A DNA stretch of 55,152 nucleotides, counting the filler, from Sluysia triapertura (lineage: Eukaryota), in the NCBI GenBank assembly GCA_046118255.1. It is 4 parts of 4 records of this genome, joined end to end, with 100 filler letters (N's around TTAATTAATTAA, not from the genome) between each part and the next. Parts side by side here need not be neighbours in the genome. Positions count along the whole stretch, not along the records: positions 11,218 to 23,151 come from JBJNIA010154825.1; positions 23,252 to 35,479 come from JBJNIA010127631.1; positions 35,580 to 55,152 come from JBJNIA010059872.1; 1 more part is not named here. One strand, 5' to 3'. A program made the position numbers and the translations under genes. The notes below the pieces were generated by a model. It saw only the letters and a program-made list of their open reading frames with translations, was not told where the DNA came from and ran no database searches. This document shows positions 11,043-50,640 of the stretch, in pieces. Every line of letters begins with the position of its first letter. Position 1 is the first letter of the stretch.

Positions 11043-11100
<58 letters not shown>

Positions 11101-17539: not shown

Positions 17540-17598
<59 letters not shown>

Positions 17599-17787: not shown

Positions 17788-17834
<47 letters not shown>

Positions 17835-19682: not shown

Positions 19683-21126
19683 TCATAAATATCTAATATC
19701 TTTATTGTCTGATGTCCTTACTTCCCTACCTAAAGTAAAAACAATAGTTATGTTATCACTATAATAAAAATAAATAAAATTTACATTTATAAAGTCACTA
19801 AGGTTGGCATTATTCGACTGAACAGGAGCGCTAACCGATCGCATTAAACTTGTGAGTCTGGAAAAATGGTCCAAGTTATCTTGATGTAAATATGGATCCG
19901 TCATTTGACCAATAGTGTGAACATGTAGACAATTTCTTGGAGAAATCGCTTCCATAAGGACATAATACTATTCCAATACGCCGATTAGAAATTGGTATAC
20001 GTTTGATTGTATTATAATAGAGGTACATTTGACTAGGAGAATTACTTTCCGATTGCGCGTTACGTTCGCATGATTTGTAGTAAGAACTGTGAGAAAGATT
20101 CTCGTTTTTCACTTTACTTTTTGATATATCATAATTTTGTGACATTGATTGGCAATGTTTTGTATTGATTATAGACTTAAATATCATCCTTTATCTCTTC
20201 CATAGTGTTGACAAGAATTAGAGATTGAAACTATACTCATCATCACTGATTATAATAGATTGCACATTCTTAGACTCATAATCAATATTAAGATCTTTGA
20301 ACGCGTAAGTGGAACTCTTGCTCAAATACAAGTCAACTAAATTTAACAAATCTATTAGAATATTCAATTGTAGCTTACCAAAACATCTATTTTACAAATT
20401 TGACTGTGCTAATATCTCATATCTATATTTGCAAGAGAATAATGACTTATCGTACCATGGGCATGATAATTGTTAGTTTCAACTCCAAATCTAAAAGATT
20501 TGTGTTCATCAAAATCCATCCGCTTTATTTCTTGACTGGACCTAATTTATGTTTGTTTTTACATGAGACTACATAACCAACACCACAATTGGTTTCTATT
20601 CTATATTCATGGTGTTTAAATGCTATTATGAAACCATGAAACTTTTCTTCGATCTTGTATTTTTATTCACTATTTCTGTACTTTTCGATCACACTGTTCT
20701 GTGTCTGAGTAACACATATTTGAAGTTTTTATTTTTACATTGGTACCTTATTATTTTACATTCTGTTTCTTTTTTAGCAATTACATTAGTCTGGCGTTTA
20801 GTACAAGTAAAAATATTGTTATGTTCAGTACTGACATGATGATGATCTTTTTTAATTGTTTGTAAAGGAAGTATATACTTTAAATTCTTTTTATCAACAG
20901 CTTTATGATTAATGACATGATCATATTCGGAAATTGAATTTAATAGCTTTATTTCAAATGTATTTATCTCGTTATCGTTTAAAATTAATATATCTTCACT
21001 AATAAGTTCGCATTGAAAATTTTGAGTCATTACTTTAAATTCATCATGGAAATTTTTAGTAATAACTTTTTGAAAATTCATTATCTTTTTTGTGTTGTCA
21101 CATAAAAATTTTGAGAGTATTATCAC
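19683..21126 (-). pseudogene. Module-3 cargo gene: decayed protein with two CCCH-type zinc-finger remnants
   Basis: Chain of broken ORFs (20689-21126, 19876-20187, 19683-19955). Finger 1 is CPWYDKSLFSCKYRY..(shift)RY*HSQI at 20406-20463. Finger 2 is LCPYGSD..(shift)RNCLHVHTIGQMTDPY at about 19890-19965. Confidence 0.6.
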
Positions 21127-21189
21127 TACAAAAATTTCTTAGTTATGAAATAAATTTGAATAATAATAAAAGTAATGTTTTAGTTTGTC

Positions 21190-22580
21190 TGGATTGGTTG
21201 TCCAACCAGAGATATAAAAATAATAAGGAGAATCACTTTGGTTGGACAACCAGTAATAATCGCCAAAACAATTTAAGTGACAGTTGAAGCTACTATCATT
21301 GTTGATGAGAATTTATACATGGTGACCAAAAATGTACAAATAAAATTTAAAAATTAAAAATGATAAATATAAAATGATAATAATAATAATAATAATTTAA
21401 TGTTATTATTATTATTAAAACTGCATAAATTCTTTCTTTGTCTTGAAAAATATGATCTTACTTTTGATTCTTTTCTTTCTCAACATGTTCAACTTATATA
21501 AACAGACGAGCCTTAAAGAATTGTGAGTTCATGATGTTTCAGCTAAATGTTATTTAATTTGGATAAGGTTTTAAGGTGTAATAGTGATGCTAACGTTTTA
21601 AGATAATGCGTAAAGCGTTTAAATATAAATTTAACTGCTGCTTTCCGGTTTTAAGTGAAGATAAATTTAGGTTTTCGTTATTTTGAAGTAATGTAAATGT
21701 TTTATGTGGATATTAAAATACATCTTGATGTTTTGAAATGAAATAATGTTTTTGGCTGAAGATGAACTTGAGTATTAAAAGGTAATCATTTAAATATCTT
21801 GAAATAGTATAAATATTTAAAATGGATTTTAAATGTACATTGGTTTTTTGCATGAAAGTAATGTTTAGCTCTTCGGAGGTGTGACTTAAAATGCATTAGG
21901 AAGAGTATAGTTTAATGAATGAAAAGAAGATAGCTTTTAGTATGTTCAAAAAGATGATTGTTCTGTGTTGAAAATATGATTTATTTTCTTGCTATTTGTT
22001 AGGTGATCTTGCCTTTTGTGATGTTAGGCATTAAATGATAACAGATCATGAATTTAGGATACATGAATTGATTTGGGAGTATCTGGTAGTTGATTTCGAA
22101 TGTGGTTGTGGTTGGATTGTTATGACATGACGAATCAAATATTTTTGATGAATTTTTTAATGTAATTTGATGGTTTTGAATGTCGTTGTGGTTTGTATGT
22201 TATGAGATTGTAGATTTAAAATGTTTTGAAAAATGAGAGTTGATTTTGGTGGATCTGCAAAGGAATAAGATATAGGAACAGTTTTGACGAATTCTACAAG
22301 GTAGTTGTGTGTTGTTGAAAAGGATAGGATTTTGGTTATTTTTGTATTGAACTGCGAATTTAAAAATGTGAGTTGTAGGTTTTGTGAGTAAGTGTTATAT
22401 TGAAACATATGATTTTGATTATGTTGACATAGGGTTGTGTAAAAAAAGTTTTTAATAAATTTTTGAAAATGTATATTGTATATTTTGAAGGTGTGTGGTT
22501 TTATAATTTTTTGAAAGAAAATTTTTAATAAAATTTGTTGATACCGATATGTGGTTTCAATGAAAAAGCCTACTATCACA
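21190..22580 (+). repeat. Dispersed module copy 3 (hairpin 2 mostly deleted, terminus degenerate)
   Basis: Hairpin 1 ATTGGTTGTCCAACCAGAG (21193-21211) / CTTTGGTTGGACAACCAGT (21236-21254); (TAA)n; AAACTGCATAAATT at 21418; GATCTTACTTTT at 21454. The body aligns by eye to copies 2 and 4. Confidence 0.85.
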
Positions 22581-22671
22581 ATTGAAATTTAAATCTGTAT
22601 CAATGCGATCCAAGGGCTTGTTTACAGGATTTTTATAAAAGAATCTTGTTAAAGTAAAATATAATATAGTA

Positions 22672-22741
22672 CAGCGATGGCGAACCTTTTTGACAAGTGG
22701 GTCACTTGAAATCGTTGCGTGGGTCATAGGTTCGCCATCAC
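22672..22741. mobile_element. 70-bp hAT (Buster-type) mini-element with two facing TIRs
   Basis: CAGCGATGGCGAACCT ... AGGTTCGCCATCAC, with internal GTGGGTCA twice; no 8-bp TSD visible. Confidence 0.7.
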
Positions 22742-23151
22742 CTTCCCAGAGTATTGAGATTCAATTTCATCTAATAATTTGGCAAATTCTTGCTTATTTA
22801 GAGCCCTTGCATTTATAAAATTAACAATTTTTGTTACAACGGGCATTACGTTGGAAAATGTTTTCAATCCTTGTTTTGCACATAAGACTTCTTGGTGAAT
22901 GAGGCAGTGAAATTCAATTAAAGAATGTTGGACACTTTGTTTAAGTTGTTGAATAAATCCAATATTTTTGCCTATCATGCAAGGAGCACCATCAGTTGTT
23001 ACAGAAACAATTTTCTGTAAATCAATATTCATTTTCGTAAATGTATCAGCGAATTCTTTGAAAACATCCAGACCAGTAGTCCTTCCCGTCAGTGTTATTA
23101 ATTTGACCAATTCTTCTCTCATTATACTTCCTGATTTATATCTGGCAAAAA
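22742..23151 (-). mobile_element. hAT transposase fragment (Buster/SPIN, GTF2IRD2-like)
   Basis: Motifs TTG.D.F, SVTTDGAPCMIG and HCLIHQEVLC. Cut by the assembly gap on one side and by the mini-element after ...IESQYSG on the other. Confidence 0.92.
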
Positions 23152-23251
23152 NNNNNNNNNNNNNNNNNNNNNNNNNNNNNNNNNNNNNNNNNNNNTTAAT
23201 TAATTAANNNNNNNNNNNNNNNNNNNNNNNNNNNNNNNNNNNNNNNNNNNN
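23152..23251. other. Assembly gap with artificial linker
   Basis: N44-TTAATTAATTAA-N44. Confidence 0.97.
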
Positions 23252-23924
23252 GTGAATAGAATATGAGATGATTGCTATGAAAGAGGAGAATCTATAAGTG
23301 AGTTCGAAATGTTTGTAAAATGCTTCGTTTGAGAATAAGAACCTTAAAACATTTTTCATCAATAAATTGGGTGTGGATAAATAGAAAATTAATTAAAAAA
23401 TAGAAAGTGAAATTAAATTCATTATTTTTATGCATGTTAACAATATTGCTTATTGTTATTTTAATGTGAGAAGTAATTTAAGTAAAAATAGATTGAGTAG
23501 AGGAAAAATAAATGACGGTTGATCAAAAATCAGATTTCTATGTTTTTTACCTAATAAAGTTTGACAGACCGTACCATATAATTGTCAGAGTTGTTGTTGT
23601 CGGTCTGATTCTCAGAGGTTTGGATGATTTTTGTGAGTGAGTGTTTGGTTGTGAGACTGGGAATTGATTGGATGACGAGAAAGCATAAAATAAAGATTTC
23701 TAAATTTTTAACACACAATAACAACAATAACGACAATTATGTATTTATTCAATGAAGATGCATGCATAGAGTAAAGTTTTTAATTTTTTTATTCATTTAT
23801 TTATACATTATTTTGTCAAAATAATATAAATAATTAATTTTATTTTAATTTGAATAATTTTAATATAAGTTAATAGCGTGTTATTCTTAGGTAATTTTTA
23901 TCTGTTACTAAAATAATTTTCAAA

Positions 23925-24091
23925 GAGACTCCCTATGCAATTTTTGTTAAGAGTATATTTGATTTTTAGTTATTTTTAAGGTAGTTAATTGAGAAACAAT
24001 TTACGTAATTTTTGTTGAAGATTATATTTAAATTGTATTTGATTTTCAGCTATTTTTAAGGTGAATTGAGTAGAAACTCCCTACGCAAATT
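23925..24091. repeat. Degenerate tandem repeat, about 70-80-bp unit
   Basis: GARACTCCCTAYGCAA and TATTTGATTTTYAGYTATTTTTAAGGT each recur. Confidence 0.65.
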
Positions 24092-25253
24092 ATTCTATCA
24101 AAATATTAAGTATCTTATCGTTAGAAATTACTGTTAAGTTTTTCCTTAAAGTTATTGTTACCAAAGAATTTTATTGTAATCGTAATCACTATTTGTTACG
24201 TTGACAAAAATATTTAAATAACATAATTTTCTAGATATTGATATTGTTAGTGTCTTTTGCGTCAATCCTAGTTGTTTAGTCTTAATTAGATTGTAATATC
24301 TTTGATTTTATTACAAACGCTATTATTAGTTTTGTCGTTTTAGTTGTTCTCAGTATTTAGTAAAGATTCTTATTGATAATAAATTAAATTACGATTTTTG
24401 GTTAATAGTACATTATTGTCTTAGTTTTGATTTAATTTTTAAGGACTTAAATTTGGTGTATAGTTATTAATATTATAAAAGAAGATTACTGCAAAAATTA
24501 TACTTGACATACTGACTATTTAAATTATTAAGGTTCCTTTAAGCTAATCAAGTTAATATTGAGTTGTAATAACTAATAATTTTAAAGACGCAACAAATAT
24601 TCTTTGCCATTTTTAATAATTTCCTTAATTTTTGAATTTTTCGTTTGTAAATAAATATATGCCACTAATTTTCATTTAATTTTTTATTTGACACGTTTGC
24701 TTATTTCTAAAAGTTTCAATTATTATTTATTATTATTATTTTTATTATTAATGGATATTGACTTGACGCAGAGTTTCACTTATATGTGATACATACTCTG
24801 GACGATGAGTTGGTAAATTATTTTTATGCGACTTCATTCTTAAGAACCCAAATAAAAGGTATTTTAAAATTTCTAAGAACTGAATGTCTTTGTGGATGCA
24901 TTATAGATTTTTGAGGGTTTTCAACAGCTCTACGTTGTTCTTAAAAATATTAAAATAATTCTAGAAATATGACATTTCTTATCTTTATCTACAACTTTAA
25001 CTTAACTGTTATTATTTCGTATTTAATATGAGATTTAAGGCGTATATATTATTGAATGCTGCGAATGCCTAAGCTTACATTTGATGGATTAAAATAAATA
25101 TATTTAGCAAAAAACTGAATCAAATTATTATTTCAAAATCGACTAAAAACAACATGAATTACGAAATTAATATAAATAATGTGACGAAAATGATAAACAG
25201 TTTTCTAAACAGTTTTCTAACAAGAAGTCAATAAATTCAAGTAAATTAACTCA

Positions 25254-25964
25254 TTATTTTTTTTTCAGAGACTTGTAATAGATATCCATTGGGTATTGTT
25301 CACAAATTACGCCGTAATTTTTGTTGGAATTATCTGATAAATCTGATAAACCTTCTTTTTCAAAAGAAGCTACATTTTCTTTTTTAATGTAGTAATTATT
25401 CGGTTCACCACTTTTCCACATGTCGTGAGAAATTTCAACATTGGTACCAAGCCAGAACCATCCGTCTTTTAAATTCGATTTGGAGTTATTTTGATAGCCG
25501 CCAACCCAAGCTGGTAATTTAGCAGTAATCACCTTCACAAAATTAAAAATATCCATGTCAAGTAAAACAGAGATTCTCGACTTTTTATCAACACATAAAT
25601 TTTGACTACCTAAAAAGTCACACCCGGAACATTCGACAAAGAAATATCGTGTTACAGTAAATCGGTTTTCTGATTTTATCTCATCTCGAATGAAAATTTT
25701 AATATTATCCTTACTTAAATCTTTTATAAGTATTCGTTTATTGGATAATAAAACACAAAACATATTATCAGATTTGAATCCTGCACATTTCGATTCCGTA
25801 TCGCAAGTCGAACCACAGTGAACATTCGAAATAAAACTTATATTTCTGACTACAATAAGTGAATCGACAATATTCGATGGAATTTGAAATTGGCGATAAA
25901 TGGAACAATAAATAAAATTCAAATGCAATTCTATAACATGAAACAGGAAGCGGTAAATTTTCAT
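25254..25964 (-). CDS. Putative secreted PAN/apple-like plus C-type lectin domain protein, 236 aa, single exon
   Basis: Intact ORF with a hydrophobic-leaning N terminus, HCGSTCDTESKCAGFKSDNMFCVL (PAN-like), and CTLD motifs WVGG, WFW, WKSGEPNN and ICE. Confidence 0.88.
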   Translation of the reverse strand: MKIYRFLFHVIELHLNFIYCSIYRQFQIPSNIVDSLIVVRNISFISNVHCGSTCDTESKCAGFKSDNMFCVLLSNKRILIKDLSKDNIKIFIRDEIKSENRFTVTRYFFVECSGCDFLGSQNLCVDKKSRISVLLDMDIFNFVKVITAKLPAWVGGYQNNSKSNLKDGWFWLGTNVEISHDMWKSGEPNNYYIKKENVASFEKEGLSDLSDNSNKNYGVICEQYPMDIYYKSLKKK

Positions 25965-26567
25965 TATCTTTATATTCTTAAAAAATTCAAAACCTAATAA
26001 AACTGTTTTTCAAATAATGAATAACATTATTTGAAGAATGTATATTTTATTTATAAAAGCCATAAGAAAAATAATAATAAAATTTCGTTTATTCTTCAAA
26101 GACTCAAACTTATTAAATAAACATTTTTTAAGTAAAACAAACAAGAATCTTAGTTTTCGCATGCAAGTGTTAAGTATATATTGTTTAAACATATATTCAT
26201 TATGTTATTATTAAATGTAAATACGAGCAAGATAGTTTTTAATCACTTTATTTTACTAATTGTACTTAAGTAATGGGTTTAATAATAATTGATAAGAATA
26301 GTGTAATAATAATAATGGGTTTGATAGTAATTGGGAAAGCTATTCATATGTATTTTGTGCATATAGCAAATTTCAAAATTATTTATATTTTATAAGGATG
26401 TACTCTTATTTGTTCACTGGTTTATTTAATTTTGTTCCATTTTTTAACATTATATATTTATGAAATTTGTGTTTTAAGATGACGTATCCCAGGCAACAAT
26501 ATAATTATAAAAATTTAGTTCATTTTAATTTGTTTAATTACAAATATTAATTTAAAAAGTTAAGTCT

Positions 26568-27073
26568 ATGCTTAATTTAAATTCTGTCAATAACATAGAA
26601 AGTGAAGATAAAATTGATAAGGAAGATGTACTGGTGGGTTTGCCAAGAAATTATGAAGAATATATAAAATATTATGAATTGGTAAGATTAATTGTATCAT
26701 TTTATTGCATTCGTAGTTGAATTGGCCTATTTCAATAACATCAGAATTAATTTTAAATTTACGCGAAGAAATGAGTGATTATCAGCAAAAAGAAACTATT
26801 TTTAATTTACTAAAAGAATCAATAAATTTAAGTTAATTTTCGATTAATTGTAAATTTCCGTTAGATTTTGATAAATTAGATGAATGGGAAGAAGAACGAC
26901 AAGAATATGAAAGGGGATTATTTGATGTAGCTTCAAATGTTATAAATGTAGATAAAGTAGAAAGTCAAGATTTAAAAGAAACTGGTTTTCAGAATTCAGA
27001 AGAATTTCAAAATTTAGTTCACTCAGTCAGAAAATCATCCAGTGCAGTCGCTGCGTATTGCGATTTGACTCAA
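26568..27073 (+). CDS. Three in-frame exons of an unidentified gene (probably extends in both directions; may be decayed downstream)
   Basis: Exons 26568-26681, 26717-26831 and 26865-27073 joined by GT..AG introns of 35 and 33 nt give an open frame (MLNLNSVNNIESEDKIDKEDVLVGLPRNYEEYIKYYEL-LNWPIS...DEWEEERQEYERGLFDV...YCDLTQ). Confidence 0.65.
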
Positions 27074-33830: not shown

Positions 33831-35479
33831 ACAACAAAAAGGAGGAATTAATGTACAAGGGTCTGCTTGTGGTAGCATATGAAAATGTATGCGTCGAATA
33901 TAAACAGGAATATAAATTTGCAACTACTTTATGCTAAATTATTATAAATTATTATTTAACCATGCATAGAATACCTCTATATGTCGCTCCTGAATTAATT
34001 TGGTGGTACGAGCATTTACAATACACAGAAGCAAAAAAAGGCTCAATGAATTACTGAAACAATTGAAGAAAATAGTGTATAAATATATTTTATTTTGAGC
34101 TTCTTTTGATTGATCATGAACATGATTTTATAAGCTAAGTTTCAAAATGAATTTAAATAATTTGTAGGCCTGAGGGATAGTGCAAAACACGTTTTGTCCG
34201 TAAATTACTACAACAAAATAAGTTTGAAAAAAACTAACAAGATAAATTGGAAAACAAGATTGACTCAAACAGACTGTTGTAAATTAAAATCTTTTAAAGT
34301 AATTAATGGTTTTGAAAAAATTGATCAAGCTGACCTAAACAAATAGCTGATGAAAGTAAGCAGACTTATGGAAATGACTGCAATTTTTGTAAAACAAGAT
34401 AGTAATCATCGTACTGGAAATTTAAATATACATTATTTAATTAAAAATACTGGAGATCAAGCTGCAATAGAGTATTTCCCTACTGTAGGGAAATCATATC
34501 AAAATATCAATGCTTCACAAAAAAATATCTCATACATACATAGAACATTAAACAAAGTACCAGATTCATTCAAAAAACAAACATAATCATTGTATATAAT
34601 TGACATGAACTATAGTTATTGTTATTATAAATCAAATCGTATTAAAATATATAATAATTATTGTGATTATTGTCATATAATAACTTTTATAAAAACACCA
34701 TAATATCATCAGATCATCATGTTAAAATATAATAATGACATCGTTATCATTATTACTACTCTCATCTTTATCATCAACTTTACTTATTCTTATTTTCGTC
34801 TGAATTTATATATATTTATGTATATTTATGTATGTGTGTATCTAAAAGGTATATGTCGAAAAAACAGATGTAGTACTAATATCTCCTAAGATACAATAGA
34901 ATCAAGTAAGTAATCAAAGAAGCAATAAATGAAGAAGGACCGAAACGATTACCGTGTGTTAAGCCTGAAATGCCAAAAGATCAATCACCGTGTGAAATTG
35001 ATGAAAAATTAGAAGTAAATCCAGCACAAAATCATAAAACAAGTTAAACAATGTCAGTATTACTAATCTTGGAAGTAGTTGGGCAAATAGTTTAGAATCA
35101 TCATCAGTGTCATCAACGTCACCAACTTCAACCAACCTATAATTTAACACTATTTCTACCACGATTTTTGTGTTTACCTATTTTTACCCAAAAAATTGTA
35201 CATTTAGATCTAGTATGAGCTAAAAGAAAATTATAACAATAAATAAAATTAATAATTATACATATATTGAGAAAAAATGGTTAAAGTTAAAAAAAATTTT
35301 AATAAATTTAATAAATATTATGTATGGATTTGTCGATCAATAATTTATGTTAAGCAGAAAGATGAGACTTTATTTATCAATTATGTCAAAAGTTAAGTTA
35401 TGCTTGAAAATTTTTCTGAAATATCTAAAAACATTGAATTTTTAATAGTGGATTATGAAGAATTAAAAAATTTTCTGGA

Positions 35480-35579
35480 NNNNNNNNNNNNNNNNNNNNN
35501 NNNNNNNNNNNNNNNNNNNNNNNTTAATTAATTAANNNNNNNNNNNNNNNNNNNNNNNNNNNNNNNNNNNNNNNNNNNN
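35480..35579. other. Assembly gap with artificial linker
   Basis: N44-TTAATTAATTAA-N44. Confidence 0.97.
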
Positions 35580-35665
35580 AGCTATCAGCCCCGTCTAACA
35601 ATTTCATTTTTTTAAATATATTCAATTATACTACTTGGCACTTTTTAGGCCTTTTAACCCAACAT
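35580..35665 (-). repeat. Second copy of the tRNA-like locus (5' flank plus first bases), truncated by the gap
   Basis: Reverse complement of about 40063-40146 (AAAAGGCCTAAAAAGTGCCAAGTAGTATAATTGAATATA...GTTAGACGGGGCTGATAGCT). Confidence 0.9.
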
Positions 35666-38600
35666 TATTTATACCTACAATTTCTTTGCTCACATCGTTG
35701 ATAAACATTTTTAGTGAAAAAAATTTAATGAGCTATCGGCTCAGATTTATTTCAGTTTGATTGCCGAATATATTAGTTCTATCACTCATAGAATTACCTT
35801 ACACAAAAAACGAATAAAATATTTAATAAAATAAAAAGACTTGAGACAATATAGATAAAAATGAATTTTATGAATCAAAATAAAAACCTTATGGTAAAAT
35901 TGCTGATTCAGAACCATCAAGAGCTTTACGATGATTTTTTCTAATTCCATCATGACTTTTCGACATTGTTTTTGGTCTATATTATAATAATAATGCTTCT
36001 ACTTATTCTTATACCACAATAAAGTAGTCTCTTCTTATCTTTGTCATTTAAATTAAGATTTAAATATTTATTCATCTGACAAATCTTGGCATGGGAGGAA
36101 CTTTAAGTTCTTTATCAACATGATAATCTTAGAACGTTTAAGCACGTGGATTATTATAATTATCATATATGTAATTTTCTAATTTAAATTTTTTAATCTA
36201 TTTTTTAACAAAAAACCGATCTTCTAATCTAGTATTAACATATTTTTTCGTTATAAGTTGTTTATTAAGTGGATTGTCTAACATTTTGTGTAATCTCTCA
36301 CCAAATTTTGATTTTATTATTTTTACTACTTTAACAGCACAAACACAACAGCACAAGCATCTAATGTTTTATCTCTAGTATCTAAACATATGACTTTTAT
36401 ACGATTAGTAATATTAACATGAATTAAAAATATTAAATCTACTAATCTAACATGAGATTTAGCTATAAAATTAACACGATTTTTAGGCAGATTGCAATGA
36501 AAACCGAAACATTTATCAATATTAGACTGGCTTAGTTCACTTAATGACATATATAATCATCTTCAATTTCAAATGAAAATTATCTAAATTATCTTTAATA
36601 ATTCTGTTAACATCTTTTTTAACAAGAATACTCACAGTAGCTAGAAATTGATATACACCTAAATTTCTGATAAAACCTGCCCGAAAACTATGTATATCAC
36701 GATAGTTTAACATAAATTTAGTACCATCTGAATCTAAACTGCATGTCGTTGCTGCAGTATATTCGGCTCTTTGTATTCGATTAAATTCATATATAATGTG
36801 CAAAAAAATTTTGTATAGTAATCTTTAAACCTTTACGACAATATACAATTGCATTATTGTAACGTCTTTTATGGTGTTCATTGCAATACATATATTACGT
36901 GGTGTAGATATCTTTTTGAATGTTTTCTAATTTTCATGCGTAAACATACTAAACAATTTTTACTGTGTTCTAAAGACGAACAGTCAACGCTATATTACGT
37001 TCTATCTTTTTGTTCTAAACTTTCAAATATGTCAGAACAATTTAATACACGTGAAATCTTAAAGCACTATATCTGATATCCGTTTTTTTGAATCAATCAA
37101 TTGAAAGATCGTTCATAAGAATTGAATTTTTAGAATTGTACACTTCAAAAAATGCATAATTTTTAATTTATAATTTAATTTTACTAGGCCTAAATGCCCT
37201 AACTTTCAGATAAAATGCTTTCGCTTCCTGTGTTTCGTTTTAGAGGTATTACATATTCTAAAATTAGAAAAATGTTGTGCATCATTATTTTGGACAATAT
37301 TACAATATACTTTTTTTAATAATGTAAATTTATTTGTTTGTATATATAATTAAAACTCATATTATAAAATTTCAGAGTATTTTTTAAGAAAACTAAAAAC
37401 GGTCGTTTGACCCCGTCGCGCCATATTAAGTACTATACTAATGTTTCCAAAATTATATTACAAATAATTTTTCACGAACATCTGCTCTTGAAAAATTAGT
37501 AGTATTCTTCATTAATACTTTATTAGTATTCTCATTAATATGTTTTTCTTATTTAAAAACACGAGTTAGTTTTTCCCATAAAGTTGATTTCTTACTGTTA
37601 CTGGAATTAATCTAATATATTCTCGTGATTTATTAAGTTTCTCTTTATATGGATTATGTTGTAATAAAAGCGTTATAAAAAATTGACATTATTGTTTAGT
37701 TACTTCCAGTTCATGTTCAAGTTCTTTAATTTTATTTTTCAAGGTTGTTGATATGGATGAGATTAAGTCTGAAAATGTGCATTTATTGTTTGATGAAACT
37801 GACATTTCTGTTTCTGAATCTTCTGTTATGAACATTTTGCTTTTGTATACGAGTAAGTTGTCAATGAAAATAAAATGGCAAGGTTTAAGTGACATTCTTG
37901 CATATTTGGTTCTGACTCTTCAATATTAAAACTGAATGTTTGACATTGAAAAACTTTCTTCTTTTTTTTATTTTAGAATCTAACCTGAGTTTCTATTTTT
38001 ATGATTTTTTTCTGTAAATATAAACTGAATATTACAATAATTTCCAACATTTCCAACATTTCCAACATATAAATGAGTGATGACTATCAATATGCGTTAA
38101 AGACTGTGTAAAATGAAGATTTGTTTACATCAGAATCACTTTCTACTAACTTGAAAGAAACATTTTGTCAATCAAATTTTTGAATACTGTAAGCTCGTAG
38201 CATCGAACAGAACTAACTAAATAATATTGTGTTTTAAAAATTGGTTTGGAAATATCATTATCATTGTTAAGTATGAAAACAAAATCACATTAAAAAGTTT
38301 TAAGATGTTAAACGTAAAGAAGATAGTGAAATGTTACGTGATTTAAATTGAGAATTTCTTGTTTATACTGTGGATAAAGAAAGATTTTGGATTGAATGAG
38401 TTGCACCAGCATACTATTTAATCCTAAAACAGACATTATTTGTTACAAATTACTCAAGCAATATAATCATAACGTAGATTTATAATACTGCAAATGAAGG
38501 CATCTTTACACCATTTCGAAACGAAGATTCTACGGAGATCGTTTTACATCTTGACAGTATCGTAACTAGTAGTTTGAATATTTGGATAAACGCACACTCC

Positions 38601-38738: not shown

Positions 38739-38856
38739 CTCATTACTGGCCACTGACGTAGTAATACGTCATTTTTTGTCCGAAATCCAGTAGCCGTGAA
38801 CGTAGTAGTACGTTTTTTGGCAGAATAATTAAGACTTTTTAGCGGCCAGCTATGAG
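38739..38856. mobile_element. TTAA-flanked (piggyBac-type) MITE, 118 bp
   Basis: TTAA on both sides; TIRs CTCATTACTGGCC / GGCCAGCTATGAG; internal ACGTAGTARTACGT twice. Confidence 0.8.
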
Positions 38857-40135
38857 TTAATAATTTTCACACATAAATAACTGCATAATTATTACAATAC
38901 TTTCAATAGTTTTACTAAAGTATTATCTATTTGTCTTCTCATGATTTATAAAATAAATATTATTAATATTAATATTATGATTATTATTAAGGTAATAAAA
39001 CCAATTTTTACTTCGTTAAACATCGAAAAGAACCAAATAAATGGTTGTGCAAACAATTCAGCCACAGTCGGAACTGTATGTACACAATTTACGATATTTC
39101 TAGTTTGATAGATGACAATAATCGATTTTTATTTGCTGGTAATTTTAAAATAGGAATTAATGCTAATGTACTGGCGTATATGGAAAAATGGTACTACAGC
39201 CGAACTAAAGTCGTTTATGAGAATTTTGATGATAATTTATTTATTGATTTAGAATTTTATAAAAAATTAGACATAACGAAAAATCATTTTTAGTATACAT
39301 GTGCATATATATATGTAATTTTATTGTATTTATTTAATTAAATTTATTTGTAAATTTTTAATTTTGTACAAAATTAACATTATGGATTTAAACTTTGGGA
39401 AATGTATTTCTTCTGTTCTGGATATGAAACGTAAAATTCAACTGGCAAAAAATGCAATAATTTTTGTTGAAGTTATGAATTTCAATTTATAAATAATACG
39501 ATTTTTGGAATGATAATGTGATAACAATAATATTAAAATAATAATAATAATAATCTAAATAATAATGAATTTAAAAAATACTTTAAAGTACTTTAATTAT
39601 TAATTATTAAAGAACCTTTCAGGTCATTAAATTCAAAAAAATAAGTAAAGTATTGTTAGGGTTTCTTCAATTTATAAAGTACTTACAAAATAGAATAAAA
39701 ATTCGAATATGTCTGTAATGAACGATCCTATAGGATTTACTAGATCAAAGTTATGTGAATATTACAAACTTTAGGAATTACTTGGATTGATATACTAAAG
39801 TCTGCTTCCTCTACTTTTATTCTGCTTTTTTCAATAGCGTTCTTTTTATAATTTATGACTTCTACTGCTTTCTATGTCCCTATGATTCAAATATTAAATT
39901 ACCACAGTACTTAAATATGTCTATTGCAAATTTGTTTTGAAATATTACTAAGACATCTTCAAATTTTTCTCTACAAGACTCTAACACAACTAAAAGTTTT
40001 ATTTCACTTTTACATAAAAAATACATAAATAATATGCTTTTAAAACAATCAAATACGTTGAATATTGTTGGGGTAAAAGGCCTAAAAAGTGCCAAGTAGT
40101 ATAATTGAATATATTGAAAATGAAATTGTTAGACG

Positions 40136-40208
40136 GGGCTGATAGCTCAGTGTTAGAGCAGTCGGACTGCGCAGACGATGGTCCCGGGTTCGATCCCCGG
40201 TCAATCCA
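40136..40208 (+). tRNA. tRNA-Ala-derived gene or pseudogene with non-canonical anticodon arm
   Basis: Acceptor GGGCTGA/TCAATCC with G3:U70 and an A discriminator; D arm GCTC/GAGC; perfect T arm CCGGG-TTCGATC-CCCGG; TTTT immediately after. The anticodon arm pairs poorly and has one extra base. Confidence 0.75.
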
Positions 40209-42363
40209 TTTTACGAAGTCTAACAATATGATTTCAACTCATTCGGTAAAGAAGAGTGTAACTTATAACGAAAACTTAGGATTTTTAATGGTATAGAAAT
40301 TAATGCAGTTTTTCCAGAACCAAACCGTCAATTGAACAGGATGAAATTATGTACAGTAGAAAGTCGTCACGATGTGATCTTCCAAGTAATATTATTGGTT
40401 CCTTGTCAAAGATTTCGACACAACGGTAATAAAATGGAACAATGATCAATTGGTTTTGAAATTCTATATAGAATTTTTACTTAAACAAAAGAAATTCTGA
40501 GTTCTCTATTTTTGCTATTGCTATTTATTTTGTGTAGTTTTACCAATTCGTAATTAAAACTATTATTTCGGCGAAAATATTGGTAATTCTGTTTCCAACT
40601 AATTAAAGGTGTAAAAAATTTTATTTTTATGATTTTGTGTGAAAAATGAAATCATGAAAATATTATAAAAATTATTAAAATTGTATTATTTTAAAAAATT
40701 ACTATTTCAATTATAATGAAATTAAAATTATTACTATTATAAATTAAAAAATACCTAAAAAGAAACTTCTCAAAAGAAGTTTGTTTAATTAAATTAAAGT
40801 TTAAAAAATGTTTTTATGTCTATACAAAGAAATCAGAACGCCATTTTAAAGTTAGAACGCCATCATTAAAAAAACAAAGCCAAAACTCAATTTGCCAGAC
40901 ACAGAAATAATAAATTAGAATTCGTCAATTTTGGTAAAGAAAATCAAATTATCTGCGACATCATCCGGCTCGACATCATTTATTAAATTACTCGTTCACG
41001 TCGGTTTCAATCTTATTCTTCCATTTATTTTGTGCGACTCGATCGATCAATCCAAAATTTATTCGTATTATTAATTAAATACGTAAGTTTGGTTTGTATA
41101 AGTATATAAACTCACAAAGAGCTAAAAGAATCCACTTAAAATACTGTTTTTCACGGTTGGTCATTAAGACCAATCATAAAATCAAACTAAATTATAAAAT
41201 CTTGAATCTTTAGTTGGCCGTAAGGACAATTATAAAATAGATATTGCAGGGTAGAGTCTTTTGGCTAGACCCTTATTATAATTTAAATATTACCTTTATT
41301 ATAATTTTATTATTTCTGTGTTATTAATAATCATAATTGTCTATTTTACTAATTTATAACAATTTTGTCTTATTTTTGTGGAATAAAAATATTAGAAGCA
41401 CTTTGAGTTCCTTTTATTATAATTGTCTTAATATAAACGTGTAACCTAAATTGAGTTTATAGTCATTTTACTGTACGAATAATTCATAATTATTATATCG
41501 AAAAATTACTTTGATTTCAATATTATTTCGTTAAATTTTAATAAGAATTATAAAATTCTACTGTCATTATATTAAGGTTTGGAGATATATAAAACGTTAC
41601 ATTTTTATACCATCATTAATCACTTGATTTTTATAAACTAGCGTTTGTCTTGATTACTTTCTAAGCTATTTAGGTTTAGTTGACATAGCTACGATTTTTC
41701 TCATCACTGTTAAGTTAAGGCAAAGAATATTTTTGTACGATTAATTTTGATAATTGTTTTCACGTAATTTTAAAGGTACGCCATTAGTAAGTCGTATACT
41801 GTAAACGGACTCAGAATAATTATTTTGCTGTAGGTTAGGTTTTTAGATTAAGAAAAACACCCAGCAAATCGTTAAAAAAGAAGATCTTTAAATGTGGCAG
41901 AAATCATGACAATGATAAACTTTACAATTGCTGATGAAAGAAATAAATGTGAGTTGTCTTTATGTACTAAATATATTTATGTTTTACGTTATAATTTTGT
42001 CGAGCATATAAACATAGAAGAATAAACATTGATTTACAAAGTAAAGTATATCTTACATTAAAAAGTCTTATCATAAATTGACAGATAAAATCAATACCAA
42101 ACTGCTTTTTCTTGTAAATTACGATTCAATTACCTAATCAAATCAAAATAATTCAGGATCGTATATAAAATTCACTAAATATATTACATATCTTTCCTAA
42201 TTAAGCTTAGAAACACTAATAACACACAAGAAAGTCGAATAATCCTTTCCTACTAATACAAATAATGCATTGATACACTCTAAATGGTTATTCGAAGTAT
42301 CTGATGGCAATATTGACTACAATTTTGTTCCATTTGTACATCATTCGGACAATCAAAACAATG

Positions 42364-42641
42364 TCAGGTGTGCCAGAGACCTTCTTATTCTCTTAATTTA
42401 ATGTTACATGTGCAGAACCAACATGGTTTCAGGAGTGCCAGAGGCCTTCTTATTCTCTTAATTTAATGTTACATGTGCAGAACCAACATGGTTTCAGGAG
42501 TGGAATTTGAACTTAAATTCATCTCACTGACAGTTATATGAGGACTTCAGGTCCAAGAATTGGAATTCAGGTTTCAGGAGTGGAATTTGAACTTAAATTC
42601 ATCTCACTGACAGTTATATGAGGACTTCAGGTTCAAGAATT
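42364..42641. repeat. Two overlapping tandem duplications (65-bp unit x2, 80-bp unit x about 2)
   Basis: TCAGG recurs at 42364, 42429 and 42494; GGTTTCAGGAGTGGAATTTG at 42490 and 42570. Confidence 0.92.
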
Positions 42642-42819
42642 TATTAAAGATGTTTCTTTTAAATTTTAACCGGAAATTTATGTAAGACAAGGAATAACCT
42701 GCCTTATCAAAAGGATCAGTAACTTTATTACGAAAAAGGAAAATGACACAATACAATACATAATACTAAAACTAGACTTTTATTTGAACCATGTGAAGAA
42801 AGCATCACTTTCGTAGGCA

Positions 42820-43650: not shown

Positions 43651-43699
43651 AATTTGACGTAATTAAAATTATGAAAAATTATTTTTTTATTACTTCTAA

Positions 43700-44423
43700 T
43701 ATTATTTCTAATATTTGTACCAGTATATGCAGCATTAATACACATATCATTACTTTGGCATCCGTGGTGGTTAAATAGTTTGACCCATATAATAATAAAG
43801 TGATGTGCTTATTACGTAATTGACTATTTAATTCATTAATTTAAATTTTAAATTATTATTATTAGTTATTGCTGCTATTTTAAATTTATGCATAATATTA
43901 TTATGTTACACGAAAGATAAAATAAATAGGAAAATTTTAGTTCATTACATTCTTCTTACTTTATTCGAGTTTATTATTTTTTTAAAATATCGTGTACTTT
44001 TAATCCTGCACGATCTTATTAGAAGTTTTACACATGATAGATTAGTTTTAAAGAATTCTAATTGAATATAAGGTTCTGAATACTGAAAGGTTAAGTTCTT
44101 CGAAATTGAATATCCAATTCTTTATTCTTAATTTTGTTCATTTGTTGAATTATTTTCATGTGAATTGGAGAATAACGATTTTATTTTGGTTCTTGAATAA
44201 ATATTCCATCAAGTCTTTCTGTACACTCTTTCAGTAGTCTTTGTAGACACGGTATTTTATGAGTCGTGTTAAGGGTGTACAATAGGTTGATTTTAAAGGT
44301 CTTGAGTTTTATTCAAGTTTTGAGTTGAATAAGGTATATATTTCTTGATACGTATTGCTTTTAATGGATTTTACAGTGATAAATATGTTTAATAAATTTA
44401 TGTTTTACGGTTAATCCACCAGA
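43700..44423 (+). repeat. Possible highly degenerate module copy
   Basis: TTA tract, ATGCATAAT near 43888, a G/T-leaning stretch, and the end TTTAATAAATTT...GGTTAATCCACCAGA, which resembles the module-1 end. Confidence 0.35.
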
Positions 44424-44736
44424 ACTTATCTATTCACACTTTTAGTTTCACTTCTAACATCTTACCACTTACAATTAATTTTGTCTCGTTTTTGGTTGTG
44501 GTTGAAAATTTATATTATGCGTATTTAAATTAACTTGCTGGTGAAATTTACGAAATATGCTATATAAACTAATTAAAGGATTATCTTTTTCTTTTGCCTT
44601 ATAATTATGAATGATTCTTTTATTTTTTAGTATTAAAAGAATATAACATCCAAGAAAAGATTTATTATTTACACATATATTTAAACAAATGTTTTCATAA
44701 TGTCCTTGAAGGCGAAAAACCTAGTCTTGCATACGA

Positions 44737-45674
44737 TTACGGGAAGGCCATATTCTTTACCTCTCGTTCATTACAGTTCTTTTTATTTTCTGTGCTTGTA
44801 GTATTCCATACCAATGGGTCTTTCAATAGTTGAGTTATTCTAGAAGATTGCCATTTATGCTTTTGTCTTGAGTATTCCTGAGGTTCCAGTTCATATGTAA
44901 TATGTGCGTAGCGCCAAGGACTCCGTTTTTGATACATAGACCATATTTGTCTGTATAGTATGGACACATCGCAGTAAAATTCATTTTATACTCATTATAT
45001 TTGTAGAAATGATTACTGGTATATTCAACTTTAATAGTATCGATACTTTTGTTTAAAGAATCACTGTCTTTATAGTATTATCCACTCTTGTAATAACCTT
45101 TATCTATAACGTTAATATTTCTGTTATCATCATAATCGTCAATATAACTTTTAACTTTAAGATCAAAGTATTTATAATCAACATTATCAAATCTTTTAAC
45201 TAAAAAATCAAAGTATTTATAATCATCGTTATGATATCTTTTAGCTAAAAATTCAAAGTATTTATAATCAATATTATCATATCTTTTAACTTTAAGATTT
45301 ACATCGTTGTTATAAAATTTAACTTTAAGATAATCATGATTGTTAAGGGTTTTAGCTTTGAGATAATTATCAATGTGATGACTTTTAACTTTAAGATCAT
45401 CATAGTTGTCATGACTTTTAATTTTAAGATCATGATCATAGTTATGAGTTTCGACTTTCAAATCATCATGATTGTGATGACCTTTAGCTTTAAGATCATC
45501 ATCGTTGTTATGACTTTTAGCATTAAGATGATCATCATAGTTATGAGATTTTACTATAATATTAGCGTCATTGTTATGAGTTTTCACTTTAGGATCAACG
45601 TCGTTGTTATAAAATTTGACTTTAAGATCATTATCGTTGATACAACTTTTAAAAGAGTTCATATCTAAACTTCG
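44737..45674 (-). pseudogene. Module-4 cargo gene: N-terminal 11-aa/14-aa tandem repeats plus C-terminal CCCH finger, frameshifted
   Basis: ORF 45078-45662 carries K(S/T)HNxDDxLKV repeats (33 bp), then KRYDNxDYKYFxxxx repeats (42 bp). A splice acceptor TTTTAACTTACTTGTAG lies in frame just upstream. The finger reads TAMCPYYTDKYGLC (shift) YQKRSPWRYAHITYEL at about 44888-44975. Confidence 0.65.
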
Positions 45675-45787
45675 CTACAAGTAAGTTAAAATATAATTGT
45701 GTAAGAAAAATTCTTTTCTATTTTTACATAGCTGTTACTAATAATAAATTTTTTTGAAAAAAAAACAATGTGTGCATATCATGACCA

Positions 45788-46827
45788 TTGATTGGTCATC
45801 CAACCAGAGGAATTGAGATAAAAGCTACAGTTATTTTGCTCTGATTAGATGACCAGTAAAAATAAAGAATACAGTTAATAGTGAATGTACTGATTTAGAG
45901 ATGAACCACCATTCATGATGACATTCATTTGTACATAAAGATTATTTATGTCAGTATGAATGGTGGTAATTTGTTCATTTATGTATTTAATTAAAATAAT
46001 TAAAATTAAAATGTTAATGATAATAATAATAATAACATTTAAAATAGTGATAATAATAATAATAACAAAATATTATTATTATCATTATAAACGCATAAAC
46101 TTCTTTATCTTTATTAAACATGATCTTACTTTCATCTTTACTTTTGCTGAACATATTGGAATTTAAAATGAAGAAACACGATCTGTTGTTATATGTATGG
46201 TTTTTCTTATTAATTTATTAATCTTATGATACCTCAGTTTAATGTTCTAGATGAATTGATGTTTCTGTCTGAAAATGTTATTAAAACGTATATGATTTTG
46301 ACGTAATTATTTTGAAGTAGTGCAAGTGTTGAGAAGAGTGAAGAATGTTAACTGGTGTTTTGAAAGAAAGTCATGTTTGCTTGTTGGAACTTAATAATAA
46401 ACGATCGTACATTTAGAATATTTGGGTTTTTTGAAGTAATATCGAATGTAATTATGATTGAATTGTTAAGAATGAAAAATAAAATGTTTTGAATGATTTT
46501 TGCTTTAGTTTAATGGTTTGAAATGTAATTGTGATTTGAATGTTATGAGATGTCGAATTGTTCAATGGTACTCCTTGTTATGAGATTGTAGGTTTAAAAT
46601 ATCTTGAAAAGTGAATGTTTATTTTGATAGATGTGAAGCGAAATGAGGTATAAAAGCGATTGAGATGAATTTCGCAAAATTGTTATATGTTGTTAAAAAG
46701 CTTTATTTTAGATATGATAGATTAGTTTTAAATAGGTTTAAAATATATAAAATGTATTTGGAAGTTTATGCTTTTATATGTTTGAATTTTTGTAGATTTG
46801 ATTAAGATTGGTGAGTTAGCCACCACA
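45788..46827 (+). repeat. Dispersed module copy 4
   Basis: Hairpin 1 at 45791-45857, hairpin 2 at 45901-45978, (TAA)n, AAACGCATAAA at 46089, GATCTTACTTT at 46122, G/T body, end GTTAGCCACCACA at 46815-46827. Confidence 0.88.
45901..45978. ncRNA. Hairpin 2 of module 4
   Basis: ACCACCATTCATGATGACAT (45905-45924) / ATGTCAGTATGAATGGTGGT (45948-45967), with a possible lower stem ATGAA / TTCAT. Confidence 0.45.
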
Positions 46828-47774
46828 TCGTTTATTTTAACATTACTGAAGATTATAAATTCTTTGATATTCAAATATTTATTTCCAAATTATTTTATTA
46901 TTAGTTTTTTTGCCCACTGAATAGTATTTTCTTTGCTATTGATTTAAATGAGGTACATATATGCAGCAATTTTATTACCACTCACACTCTAAACACAGTC
47001 TACAATCTTATTCTGATTATATCTAATACATATCTCAAAACCCGTAATAAAATCATTAAAATGTAAATTGCATCAATTAATTTCATTAATATCAATATTG
47101 TTTTTCCCAGCATCGTCTCCTTCATTCACATCAACACCATTCCGTAGAGCATCTTTAAACTTTTTGTGTTACATGCTCTTTAAAGATGCATTACAAGAAG
47201 TGTCTATAAATAAAATGAATCATGTACAGGAAAATGTATTTCGGAATTTGATTAAGTAAATAAGATGGGAATGAATCATGTAAGTAATATTGTTACTCAT
47301 TTACCACAAAAAAGATGTGGATCAATAATCAGCTTAGAAATATATGCTTATTTGGACTAAAGCTCGTGAAAATCTCTGCAGTGTAGATAATTTACCAAAC
47401 CAATTTTCTAGCCATTATCATGATGACAATGACGAATCTAGTGAAGATTCAAGTAATGATCATAACAACAATAATGAGAAGAAAATAAAACATCAATAAC
47501 AAAGCAATCGAAACGAAAAACTTAATCCCTTAAAAATTCTAATCAAAATTCTAAAAAGAATCACAAAAATTAGCAGCCAATAAAAAAAACGTCCCAAAAG
47601 CGCTAATCAACAAATAAAAAGTTCTCCAAGACTAAAAAATAATTACTATAATTAAAAACAGAATGTTTAATTTTAAATATTTATAAATTTAACCTTGTTT
47701 TTGTATTAAATAAAGTAATGAAAGGCATTTTTTGAAAAATCTGCTTATTAGAATTTTTGTTCATATAATTTAAG

Positions 47775-47982
47775 ATGCTTTGTAAAATGTGAAAACAATA
47801 GCGGCTCTGTTTTATTTCTTACTTATGATATATCACATGTTGATTGGGTTATTCAATATGATGTGCCAAAATATTATGATGATTATGTTCATAAAGTTGG
47901 GCGTACAGCCAGAGCTGAGAAATCTGATATTTCAGTACTTTTTATTTGTTTCACACAGAAACATGAAGGAATAATCCAATAA
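47775..47982 (+). pseudogene. DEAD-box RNA helicase C-terminal fragment (motif V-VI region)
   Basis: SVLFLTYDISHVDWVIQYDVPKYYDDYVHKVGRTARAEK. Motif VI HRxGRTAR is recognisable; motif V (DVAARGL) is missing. Confidence 0.85.
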
Positions 47983-48895
47983 TCCAATGTAATTTTGACG
48001 ATTTCTTTCCCAAGAAGTAGATGTTCCGATTTTATGGATTTTGAATTTTGTGGTATTGCAAAAAGTATTGTTCCTTTAAACATTTAAGTCGTATGGTTTA
48101 TGTAGAATGGATACGATCTGTTATTTGTATAATTTAATAACTAAGATAGGTTATATTTATGGACTTCAAGCTGATGATTTTATTAATTGTTTTTATGGCT
48201 GTCTTGAAATAATAACTTGGGTTATTGCAAAAAGCAGAAATGATTATTATTTTTAGGATTTCAAATTAAATTAGATAATCATACTGACACTGCTTTTGTC
48301 GAAAAGATGGATTAACAATAATTGTTGAAGATAGTAAATTCTATCAGCTTGATTTGTTTCTTAATCAATTATTATTTCAACCATACCAAATGAAAGAGAG
48401 TTACAGATTATTATTCACAATAAACATGTCAATCTTGATTGTAATACGAACTATCAACGCATCCGGTATCTTTGATTTTAAGTCTTTATCAAAAGATGTA
48501 GCTACTACTCATTTTAATTTCTATTTTGACAGAGGATTTTTGTATGTAGTTTTCTAGTTCAATAAATGCGAACAGCTTTTATGATTTTTTAACCGTAATG
48601 ACTTTAAGCCTTGAGCCGAATTGTAATTTAAAAAATTTTAAATTTTGTGATAAATAGGCGAACCTTAAGTCCCATTTAGCTTTGACTTAACTACTTGTAG
48701 CAATGAAGAAATTAAATCGGACCTTAAGTCCATATTTAATAACGAGTTTTTCGAAATTAAATTATTTATTATGATCTTAGTTCATAAATTAACTATAATC
48801 CGACCATTAGAGCTTGAAATATCATTGATATATTATCAACAATAAAGGACTAAGTATTTTACACACTTTAATAAGTCATATTATTTTATTTTTTA

Positions 48896-49550
48896 TGTGT
48901 GATTCAAACCGTTTTATTGCATTTTTCGGCGACCATGGAGTAATTTATCATGATAATATCTAATAATATTATGAAAATAACATTGTGCATAGAATTATGG
49001 CTATTTTTGTTATTGAAAAATATTCAAAACCATTAACTCATATTAAATTTTATTTAAAACATTTTAACCCATAATTCATAACATCAGAATTAGAATTACA
49101 TTTAAAACCTTCAATCTACATTTTATATCATCAATCTTTCAATTTCCAAACTTTACTTTACATTTTAAATTCCATTAAAAACATTTTAAATTCATGGTTT
49201 TATTTCATTTCAGAATGGGTATCAAAATATTTGTTCAGAAGAAGCATTTTAAAAAAAGACAGATGGTGTAAAGTATTCAAAAGATGAAATTCATGTATTT
49301 TAATTTTTATATTATTATTATTAATCATTTTTATTATTATTTTCATTATTATTATTGTTAATATTAGTGCTTTTAATTATATTATTATTTTTGATTTACA
49401 CAGTGACTAATTTTGTTCTTTGGTGTGTCATCGATTTGACAGTTAATTAAACTTAATTCAACATACCATGTTGACTGTCTATCAATGGCAAATAGTTGCT
49501 GGTTAATTGAATGAGGGAATTAATTTTGTCTGAGTGGACATCCAATCAGA
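48896..49550 (-). repeat. Dispersed module copy 5, inverted and shortened
   Basis: GGACATCCAATCAG at 49536-49549; hairpin TGTCATCGATTTGACAGTTAA (49426-49446) / TTGACTGTCTATCAATGGCA (49471-49490); TTA tracts; TCAAAATATTTGTTCAG near 49222; C/A-rich body. The left boundary is tentative. Confidence 0.7.
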
Positions 49551-49629
49551 AGCCAAGAAAAGAAAATTATTTGTTTGTAAAACACAAGATTTAAAAATAA
49601 GCATAATTAATTTTACAATTCGCAGTTAA

Positions 49630-50640
49630 TGTTAAAAAATTAAAAAAATAAGTTAAACAATTTTCGATGCTTACATTAAGTGAATTTGTTGGTTCACAAT
49701 ATTATTATGATAATTTTATTTTAACATTTCATAATAAAAAATATTTAGTACTCCATTGTATATGTCATACAAATATATTGATAGAAATATGTTATTCGAC
49801 TTTAGTAAAAAAGATAACTTAAAGATTGATTATGTGATGTATTCTGTTAACGACAAGCAAATAAAAGATGGTAGATCAGAAGATGAATGATATTTATCAC
49901 AATATTTTTAAAGATCAGAATAATCATCTAATAAATACAAAATTTTTTAAGTCAAAGTTAACTACAGATGTAGGATTGATTGTAAGTAGTTTGTTTCATG
50001 ATTTATTAGATGTGCTAAAATTAATAAAATCTGTTAGATTAGCCGAAGTACAAAATATTAGTACAAGAAGTTGAAGAGAACAATTTCATGCACGTCAATT
50101 TAAAGAATCCATTATGATTATTGAAAATAATAAAAAGGTTATACTATCAAGTTTAAATCATGTTTATTCTTTGAAATATAAATTGACAAAACGAGATAAA
50201 AGTATTCTTAGATTAATTATAACAATTAATGATCAAGTTGTAGAAATTTCTATTAATATATGTTTAGCTTTTTACAAATTAGTTATTACAAATATAGTAA
50301 ATGTCGATTTATGTAACATCAATAGTGAAGGACATGTCCAAAGTAAAAAACAAGAACTGTCTGTTCAAAATTCTTCTATAGAAGCAGCCAATCTTTCTAT
50401 ATAAATTCACAGATTTACGCTAATGAACACAAATACTAAAAGAAAGCTATTTGCATTTATGGAACTACGAAGACTGCCGAATGTTCCTGATATGGCAAAA
50501 AATGCAAAGACTGTCATCGAATTCATGAAATTAGCGATGTCCTTAATCCTCATTGAACTTCAGTAATCACTATGACAGAATCAATTCTATATTATCAAGT
50601 TTGGCAGTCACATCATTTGATCCGGTGATCCAGAAAGATT
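49630..50640 (+). pseudogene. Module-5 cargo gene: decayed protein with C-terminal CCCH finger
   Basis: Broken ORFs 49868-50074 and 50114-50404, then HKY*KKAICIYGTTKTAECS*YGKKCKDCHRIHEISDVLNPH at 50428-50553 in one frame. Confidence 0.65.

Follow-up and report, generated by a model that had tools for sequence, protein, structure and literature searches.

The window analysed here, a stretch of 55,152 nucleotides from the genome of Sluysia triapertura (GCA_046118255.1), carries five copies of a repeated module, each accompanied by a broken gene-like region that we call its cargo. Two of the cargos (4 and 5) contain a single CCCH zinc finger which, as judged from the sequences, can be taken as a genuine broken copy of one Unkempt-type finger, not of the TIS11 type. 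The reading that we favour, at a little above an even chance, is that these are broken Unkempt-type fingers behind a module of 1.1-1.4 kb, in what are probably the dead copies left by a non-autonomous mobile element, the resident gene of which combined a variable N-terminus with the finger. The window has a GC content of 20-30% and consists of four independent contigs set end to end with artificial linkers between them, and neighbourhood across the joints is meaningless. The two fingers and their cargos are:

44690-45674, minus strand: cargo 4, with 11- and 15-residue D/N/K/Y repeats, the finger and a tail; a stop at 45078-45080 and a frameshift in the finger
44902-44966, minus strand: finger 4, an Unkempt-type CCCH finger, C-x9-C-x6-[C]-x3-H, with loss of one base and TGG at the third-Cys codon
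49865-50646, plus strand: cargo 5, with an N-terminal region of unknown kind, the finger and a tail; several stops and a frame change
50452-50517, plus strand: finger 5, C-x9-C-x6-C-x3-H, interrupted by an in-frame TGA and preceded by a TAA in the lead-in

Both peptides are present where a preliminary description of this DNA had placed them. Finger 4 reads TAMCPYYTDKYGLC from 44975, followed by TGG at 44916-44914 and RYAH to 44902. Finger 5 reads KKAICIYG...CKDCHRIHEI from 50440, with the TAA at 50437 and the TGA at 50488, and additionally has a cysteine at 50512 and a histidine at 50524. In finger 4 the frame stays open through CIKNGVL and is broken at the third-Cys codon; YQKRSP, previously included in the finger, is a wrong-frame linker, the true in-frame linker being IKNGVL (compare TKNGLH in Unkempt).

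In Pfam searches PF25427 (zf-CCCH_UNK; gathering cut-off 31.1 bits) was the only zinc-finger family matched, by finger 4 up to its break with 24.4 bits (E 2.7e-5) and by finger 5 with 15.5 bits (E 0.016), each under the cut-off. In the PDB the same part of finger 4 had 5elh (Unkempt) as its sole match (E 1.1, gapless), and finger 5 aligned to residues 94-128 of 5elh over 35 residues, again gapless (E 0.24). Judged by where it sits in the 5elh chain, the matched finger is presumably the third of Unkempt. The full pattern C-x9-C-x6-C-x3-H occurs once in the six frames of the window, at finger 5, where 20 shuffles gave an expectation of 0.00; C-x8-C-x5-C-x3-H, the spacing of TIS11/ZFP36 fingers, has no match in them.

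The two fingers are also alike when compared with each other. Their frameshift-aware pair alignment scored 41, a value reached by none of 40 shuffles, and they were mutual best non-self matches in every setting of the window-wide scans, the match lying above all shuffled maxima in six of the eight single-query settings (peaks 130 bases behind each query in the profile scan were self-match tails and were set aside). As DNA they show no similarity, since scores at least as high are reached by 474 and 529 of 2000 null segments. Because the likeness is one of protein and not of DNA, the finger would have been kept under protein-level selection for a time.

Copies were compared by means of the contigs of one public run (X1), of 84-300 bases each, placed on positions 43700-51200 at at least 80% identity; joints with one side of less than 30 letters were excluded when setting ends. 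The earlier proposal that TGG occupies the third-Cys position of finger 4 was borne out: among the 99 contigs placed on 221 bases around this finger, the codon is TGC in five and the spot has one extra base in two, and four loose contig ends start with a Cys codon before RYAH. The stop at 45078-45080 reads Tyr in 23 other X1 contigs. The residue before the first Cys, Met in the window, is Ile in 10 contigs, and the tail shifts toward D-L-R-P (compare HDLRS in Unkempt); both changes lie nearer to the Unkempt sequence. Of the 14 multi-contig differences around finger 4, none removes a Cys or His, and four are silent; four single-contig rows at 44910-44913 were left out of this count.

Across finger 5 (50319-50584) there are X1 contigs identical to the window letter for letter, with 0 differences, so that its stops are truly in the DNA and assembly error as their source is ruled out; a spanning identical contig of this kind was found for finger 5, and none is listed for finger 4. 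A recoded genetic code was also rejected: the breaks mix TAA, TGA and TAG with frameshifts, and other copies are open at both breaks examined. Relatives intact at the finger, which the preliminary description had proposed to look for, thus exist as unbroken finger segments, whereas a whole intact gene would be longer than contigs of this size. A protein search with an 80-residue finger frame among 1.84 billion representatives gave no relatives, and one with the finger region of cargo 4 gave five candidates, none of which scored. A metagenome/viral contig match was dismissed as chance; it rests on the word KSIDTIKV in a cysteine-free protein stretch.

The finger had been claimed as the common payload of the module, linking cargo genes that otherwise appear unrelated. 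The remaining cargos and motifs are:

692-1108, minus strand: cargo 1, a 138-codon frame of unknown kind in which no finger was found
16275-17180, minus strand: cargo 2, a paralogue of the cargo 4 N-terminus up to the finger lead-in (16418-16377), the finger being absent
19683-21138, minus strand: cargo 3, frames of unknown kind, badly broken
20406-20463, minus strand: motif 3a, C-x9-C and then RY*H in another frame, without a third Cys; a doubtful finger remnant
19917-19962, minus strand: motif 3b, CPYGSD and then C-x3-H in another frame; a doubtful finger remnant

The link holds for cargos 4 and 5, which are alike in the finger region only; it is doubtful for cargo 3 and fails for cargos 1 and 2, which have no finger. 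As payload of every copy, the finger is thus confirmed in two of five, doubtful in one and missing from two. The N-termini of cargos 1, 3, 4 and 5 were unrelated in shuffle tests of protein alignments; a 78-base likeness of 67% between the cargo 3 N-terminus and cargo 4 did not survive them. Cargos 2 and 4, on the other hand, belong by their repeats to one gene family (alignment score 273 vs 107.6 ± 13.6, reached by 0 of 500 shuffles). Cargo 2 is cysteine-free after the finger lead-in. Behind this lead-in, at 16365-16320 on the minus strand, QHNFDDLR recalls the AHGPHDLR tail of Unkempt, as though the core with the cysteines had been lost by deletion; in profile scans this stretch has a rank of no better than 303-383 among 800. 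Cargo 1 holds a Cys-rich stretch at 316-270, which was rejected as a finger (ranks 519-533 of 800). Searches among longer proteins returned 638 candidates for cargo 5 and 240 for cargo 1, with no relatives in either case, PDB searches of cargos 1, 3 and 5 gave nothing under E 0.2, and a PHROGs search of the cargos gave nothing under E 0.017. No piece of a primase or of a tRNA-CCA enzyme was seen in any of the five cargos.

The two cargo 3 peptides, about 500 bases apart, are present as described: CPWYDKSLFSC runs from 20463 and RY*H, in a different frame, occupies 20417-20406, while CPYGSD runs from 19962 and PRNCLHVHTIGQMTDP, again in a different frame, from 19940. Their statistical reality as fingers is not borne out. 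None of six frames matched Pfam, nor did read-throughs with X in place of the breaks; the five pair scores that involve 3a or 3b were reached by 2-22 of 40 shuffles; and in window-wide profile scans 3a ranked 59-173 and 3b 5-14 among 800 peaks, at or below the shuffled maxima. The forecast that the reconstructed peptides would score against CCCH profiles and each other above shuffled controls therefore came true for fingers 4 and 5 and failed for 3a and 3b. With 3b as query, the best non-self match in the window was finger 4 (45.9; three of eight shuffled maxima were higher), and the 3a lead-in has 12 exact bases in common with that of finger 5, as found in one of 600 random segments, with 15 pairs tried. 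That each motif is a true finger remnant has about even odds. The C-x9-C spacing is indeed common to 3a, 4 and 5 but is a poor marker, with 106 six-frame matches in the window against 80.4 expected. CP[YW][YG] occurs four times where 0.25 is expected, the motif having been defined after looking; the fourth occurrence, at 41228, is chance, without a module or a second Cys.

The module itself is found at:

1141-2285, minus strand: module copy 1, with the start TGTGGTGG, a microsatellite of ATT units and then two hairpins with CCAATC at the end
17292-18615, minus strand: module copy 2
21186-22580, minus strand: module copy 3, with the decayed start TGTGATAG
45784-46827, minus strand: module copy 4
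49022-49560, plus strand: module copy 5, more decayed, with a clear hairpin end and a weak upstream part
1141-1318, 17292-17468, 21186-21260, 45784-45972 and 49420-49560: hairpin pairs at the module ends

The five copies lie on three of the four contigs, copies 2 and 3 in tandem, and copies 4 and 5 facing away from each other. Copies 1-4 measure 1.0-1.4 kb, are 49-65% identical in alignment and all close with the ATT microsatellite and the hairpin pair; the upstream part of copy 5 matches their profile with E 0.047. The TGTGGTGG start is a sharp border, with 57-60% identity over the first 60 inner bases vs 40-44% over 60 flank bases in all three pairs compared; the same sequence at 8752 is not a module copy. 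A stretch at about 44424 on the minus strand, just behind cargo 4, weakly resembles the module start in direct orientation, at a level not above AT-rich background. The hairpin arms change together between copies, with folding z down to -9.4, and the mismatches in eight hairpins (6 G:T, 6 A:C, 4 other) show no strand preference. A microRNA or other RNA family was rejected for them, there being no Rfam match and no G:U preference. From the second hairpin it is 824 bases to the first Cys in copy 4 and 907 in copy 5, 729 to motif 3a, and about 900 to the cargo 2 lead-in.

X1 contigs show that module and cargo form a dispersed high-copy family. In all, 3403 of them were placed on the 7501 bases around cargos 4 and 5. 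Summed contig depth, which reflects many related places and not copy number, was 3474-12396 over the outer part of module copy 4 (46210-46962; single-place contigs 11-17), 3845 over 48971-49221 at module copy 5, 765-2158 over cargo 4 and 890-1721 over cargo 5, and fell to 12-211 (single contigs 11-16) in the 1.5 kb between copies 4 and 5. It is thus greater over the module than over the cargo. The suggestion of a lineage-specific CCCH RNA-binding family stands insofar as the family is many-copy and without database relatives; a living host family finds no support here, where all five copies are broken. No RNA run was listed as containing the stretch, which speaks neither for nor against expression.

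In the favoured reading the finger would have been taken from the third finger of the host unkempt gene. The module likely supplies a promoter, by its paired CCAAT-bearing palindromes, and one element end, and the N-terminal part was probably swapped or rebuilt between subfamilies. For its copying the unit would depend on an enzyme acting in trans, and it would probably be copied in the form of DNA or unspliced RNA. Unkempt (UNK/UNKL) has a RING domain besides its six CCCH fingers in tandem (PMC4358403), and binds RNA by three-finger sets, the set of fingers 1-3 preferring A/U-rich RNA with micromolar affinity (PMC4358403, PMC11436793, PMC12136788). Because binding is by sets of three, a lone finger is predicted to bind weakly to U/A-rich single-stranded RNA, most simply the element's own transcript, and would not act as a TIS11-like decay factor. 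The function first suggested, that of a maternal regulator bound to AU-rich elements, was borrowed from the TIS11 type and loses its support with it, since the finger is not of that type.

Several observations weigh against this reading. A proven finger is present in only two of the five copies, and a captured host gene was identified in no cargo of the window. No transposase, integrase or reverse transcriptase was found inside any copy; neither a far end nor a terminal repeat pair turned up, nor, with the far ends undefined, any target duplication. End-vs-end alignments for an inverted far-side end (terminal inverted repeats, Pack type or foldback) gave AT-rich background only. Plain protein alignments of longer pieces of cargos 4 and 5 were reached by 11 and 7 of 500 shuffles; with finger 5 as query, finger 4 was found at 41 where shuffled maxima were 38-45, and in another scan at 49.1 where one shuffled maximum was 50.3. 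The Unkempt matches given above are modest, only E 0.24 and 1.1 in the PDB and both under the Pfam cut-off, and the best PDB match of finger 5 is a different protein, 6nzl (E 7e-4, gapped). Run X1, which contains 0.69 of the window words, may be where the window itself comes from, and the limit already stated applies to its summed depth. The silent share of the differences around finger 4 (4 of 14) would be about what drift gives and lends no support to present-day selection.

The main rival, distinctly less probable than the reading above, is a host multigene family under birth-and-death turnover, in which a lineage-specific one-finger gene was duplicated together with its promoter (the module) and most copies became pseudogenes. 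Conservation of the finger as protein without DNA similarity would suit it, as would the lack of a mobility enzyme and a second end and the tandem position of copies 2 and 3. So would the intron-like GT...AG pieces of 50-64 bases that lie behind the finger region in four of the five copies, which are a hint only, as such pieces occur in 12% of 400-base segments and the pattern was chosen after looking:

50588-50704, plus strand: stretch with an intron-like GT...AG piece of 59 bases from 50646
307, 16307 and 19784, minus strand: similar intron-like pieces

Against a host family stand the sharp common start amid unrelated flanks, the greater depth of the module than of the cargo, the presence within 55 kb, on contigs unrelated to each other, of five copies that are all broken, and the unrelated N-termini of cargos 1, 3, 4 and 5.

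A bolder form of the mobile-element reading, which we regard as rather unlikely, is an undescribed element family in which a lone Unkempt finger has become the permanent gene, with unrelated N-termini shuffled in front of it; its product might bind the element's own RNA or compete with host Unkempt, aiding spread or escape from silencing.

Improbable, but worth setting out, is a long terminal repeat (LTR) retrotransposon, the module being the LTR or leader, the cargos chimeric retrocopies made by template switching, and the finger a fragment captured from unkempt mRNA and later amplified. The module start begins with TG and holds TGGTGGCC, and at 2285, 18615 and 46827 on the minus strand TGGTGG(C/T)(C/T)AAC resembles a transfer RNA (tRNA) primer-binding site. 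Intron-poor broken host genes lie nearby; LTR-mediated chimeric retrocopies are known in animals (PMC5131818), and giant LTR elements with extra host-like domains in planarians (PMC6431247). However, no second, direct copy of the module closes any cargo, paired direct terminal repeats being found around none, there is no gag-pol remnant, no conserved primer site lies behind the hairpins, and the intron-like pieces persist.

TIS11/ZFP36-type fingers serving as germline or maternal regulators that bind AU-rich elements, as first proposed, are very improbable: finger 5 does match 6nzl ('Cytoplasmic zinc-finger protein', presumably nematode POS-1; E 7e-4) and 1rgo (E 0.37), and Unkempt fingers 1-3 likewise prefer A/U-rich RNA (PMC12136788), but the alignments to 6nzl and 1rgo are gapped, the TIS11 spacing is absent from the window, tandem pair and lead-in also fail, and ZFP36 proteins need both fingers to bind (PMC12710939).

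Other features of the window are listed below. The syntaxin, DEAD-box helicase and Rad1 pieces among them mark the DNA as eukaryotic, an animal source being likely. The tRNA-like gene and its partial copy are possibly a tRNA-derived repeat.

4693-5200, minus strand: fragment of a broken syntaxin gene (Pfam PF00804, E 1.9e-10), seemingly intron-free there
11118-11217, 23152-23251 and 35480-35579: artificial joints, 44 N + TTAATTAATTAA + 44 N, a six-frame stop linker
12837-13625 and 33879-34469: a second old repeat pair, inverted, on different contigs, 63-75% alike
22724-23149, minus strand: by eye a hAT-type transposase-like frame, about 150 bases upstream of module copy 3, cut by the contig edge and without a Pfam match
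25254-26009, minus strand: open 251-codon frame, by eye secreted with PAN and C-type lectin-like parts; no Pfam match at E 1
35580-35669, at the contig start, paired with 40061-40147: inverted partial copy of the tRNA-like gene, 93% identical
40136-40208: tRNA-like gene (ARAGORN Arg-GCG, Rfam 43.4 bits)
42342-42641: recent duplications in tandem, 65 and 80 bases long and 97-98% alike
47752-47982 and 48288-48557, plus strand: broken pieces of a DEAD-box helicase (C-terminal part, PF00271) and of Rad1 (PF02144), located at low contig depth between module copies 4 and 5, whose starts face outward

Compared with the Unkempt finger (5elh chain A 94-128, PF25427), those described here have the same C-x9-C-x6-C-x3-H spacing, a K-T/A-x-I-C lead-in, KNG before the third Cys, an H...DLR tail and a gapless alignment. 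They differ in being single, not six in tandem, in the lack of a RING or other family match in the cargo frames scanned, in an N-terminus that is of low complexity or unknown kind, in their many copies on a repeat, all of them broken in the window, and in scores under the Pfam cut-off. With a single finger and no RING, the window genes would not be Unkempt orthologues. With TIS11/ZFP36 proteins they have in common the CCCH class and the weak gapped matches to 6nzl and 1rgo; in contrast to ZFP36 proteins, which have a finger pair separated by 18 residues and a YKTEL lead-in (PMC12710939), fingers 4 and 5 are single per cargo and follow MNFTAM and Y*KKAI, not (R/K)YKTEL.

Non-autonomous elements that carry genes are known, among them Pack-MULEs and those formed by Helitron/Helentron capture. 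Like these and the LTR chimeric retrocopies (PMC5131818), the present copies have a repeated end module before variable, decayed coding pieces and no enzyme of their own. Unlike them, no inverted or direct terminal pair, target duplication or 3' hairpin-CTRR end was found here (the module start reads TGTGG, and the 3' ends by which a Helitron/Helentron would be recognised are undefined), and a fixed host-type finger stands at the 3' side. The giant gypsy elements Burro and GYPSM1 of planarians are comparable in that they are mobile, carry host-like domains and reside in animal genomes rich in AT; here the unit is about 2-3 kb, without gag, pol or env, and 'CCCH' does not occur in the text of the paper on those elements (PMC6431247). 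No account of a lone Unkempt finger on a high-copy repeat was found in the literature searched, most subscription papers and supplements lying outside that search. The finger itself is a known motif and its spacing is not new; its setting on a repeat would be. Should all copies prove dead, the family is a fossil repeat of curiosity value. Should there be copies that are intact and expressed, the deeply conserved six-finger Unkempt, which binds by clusters of three, would have in them a natural test of binding by a lone finger and of how RNA-binding proteins are built by domain shuffling in mobile DNA.

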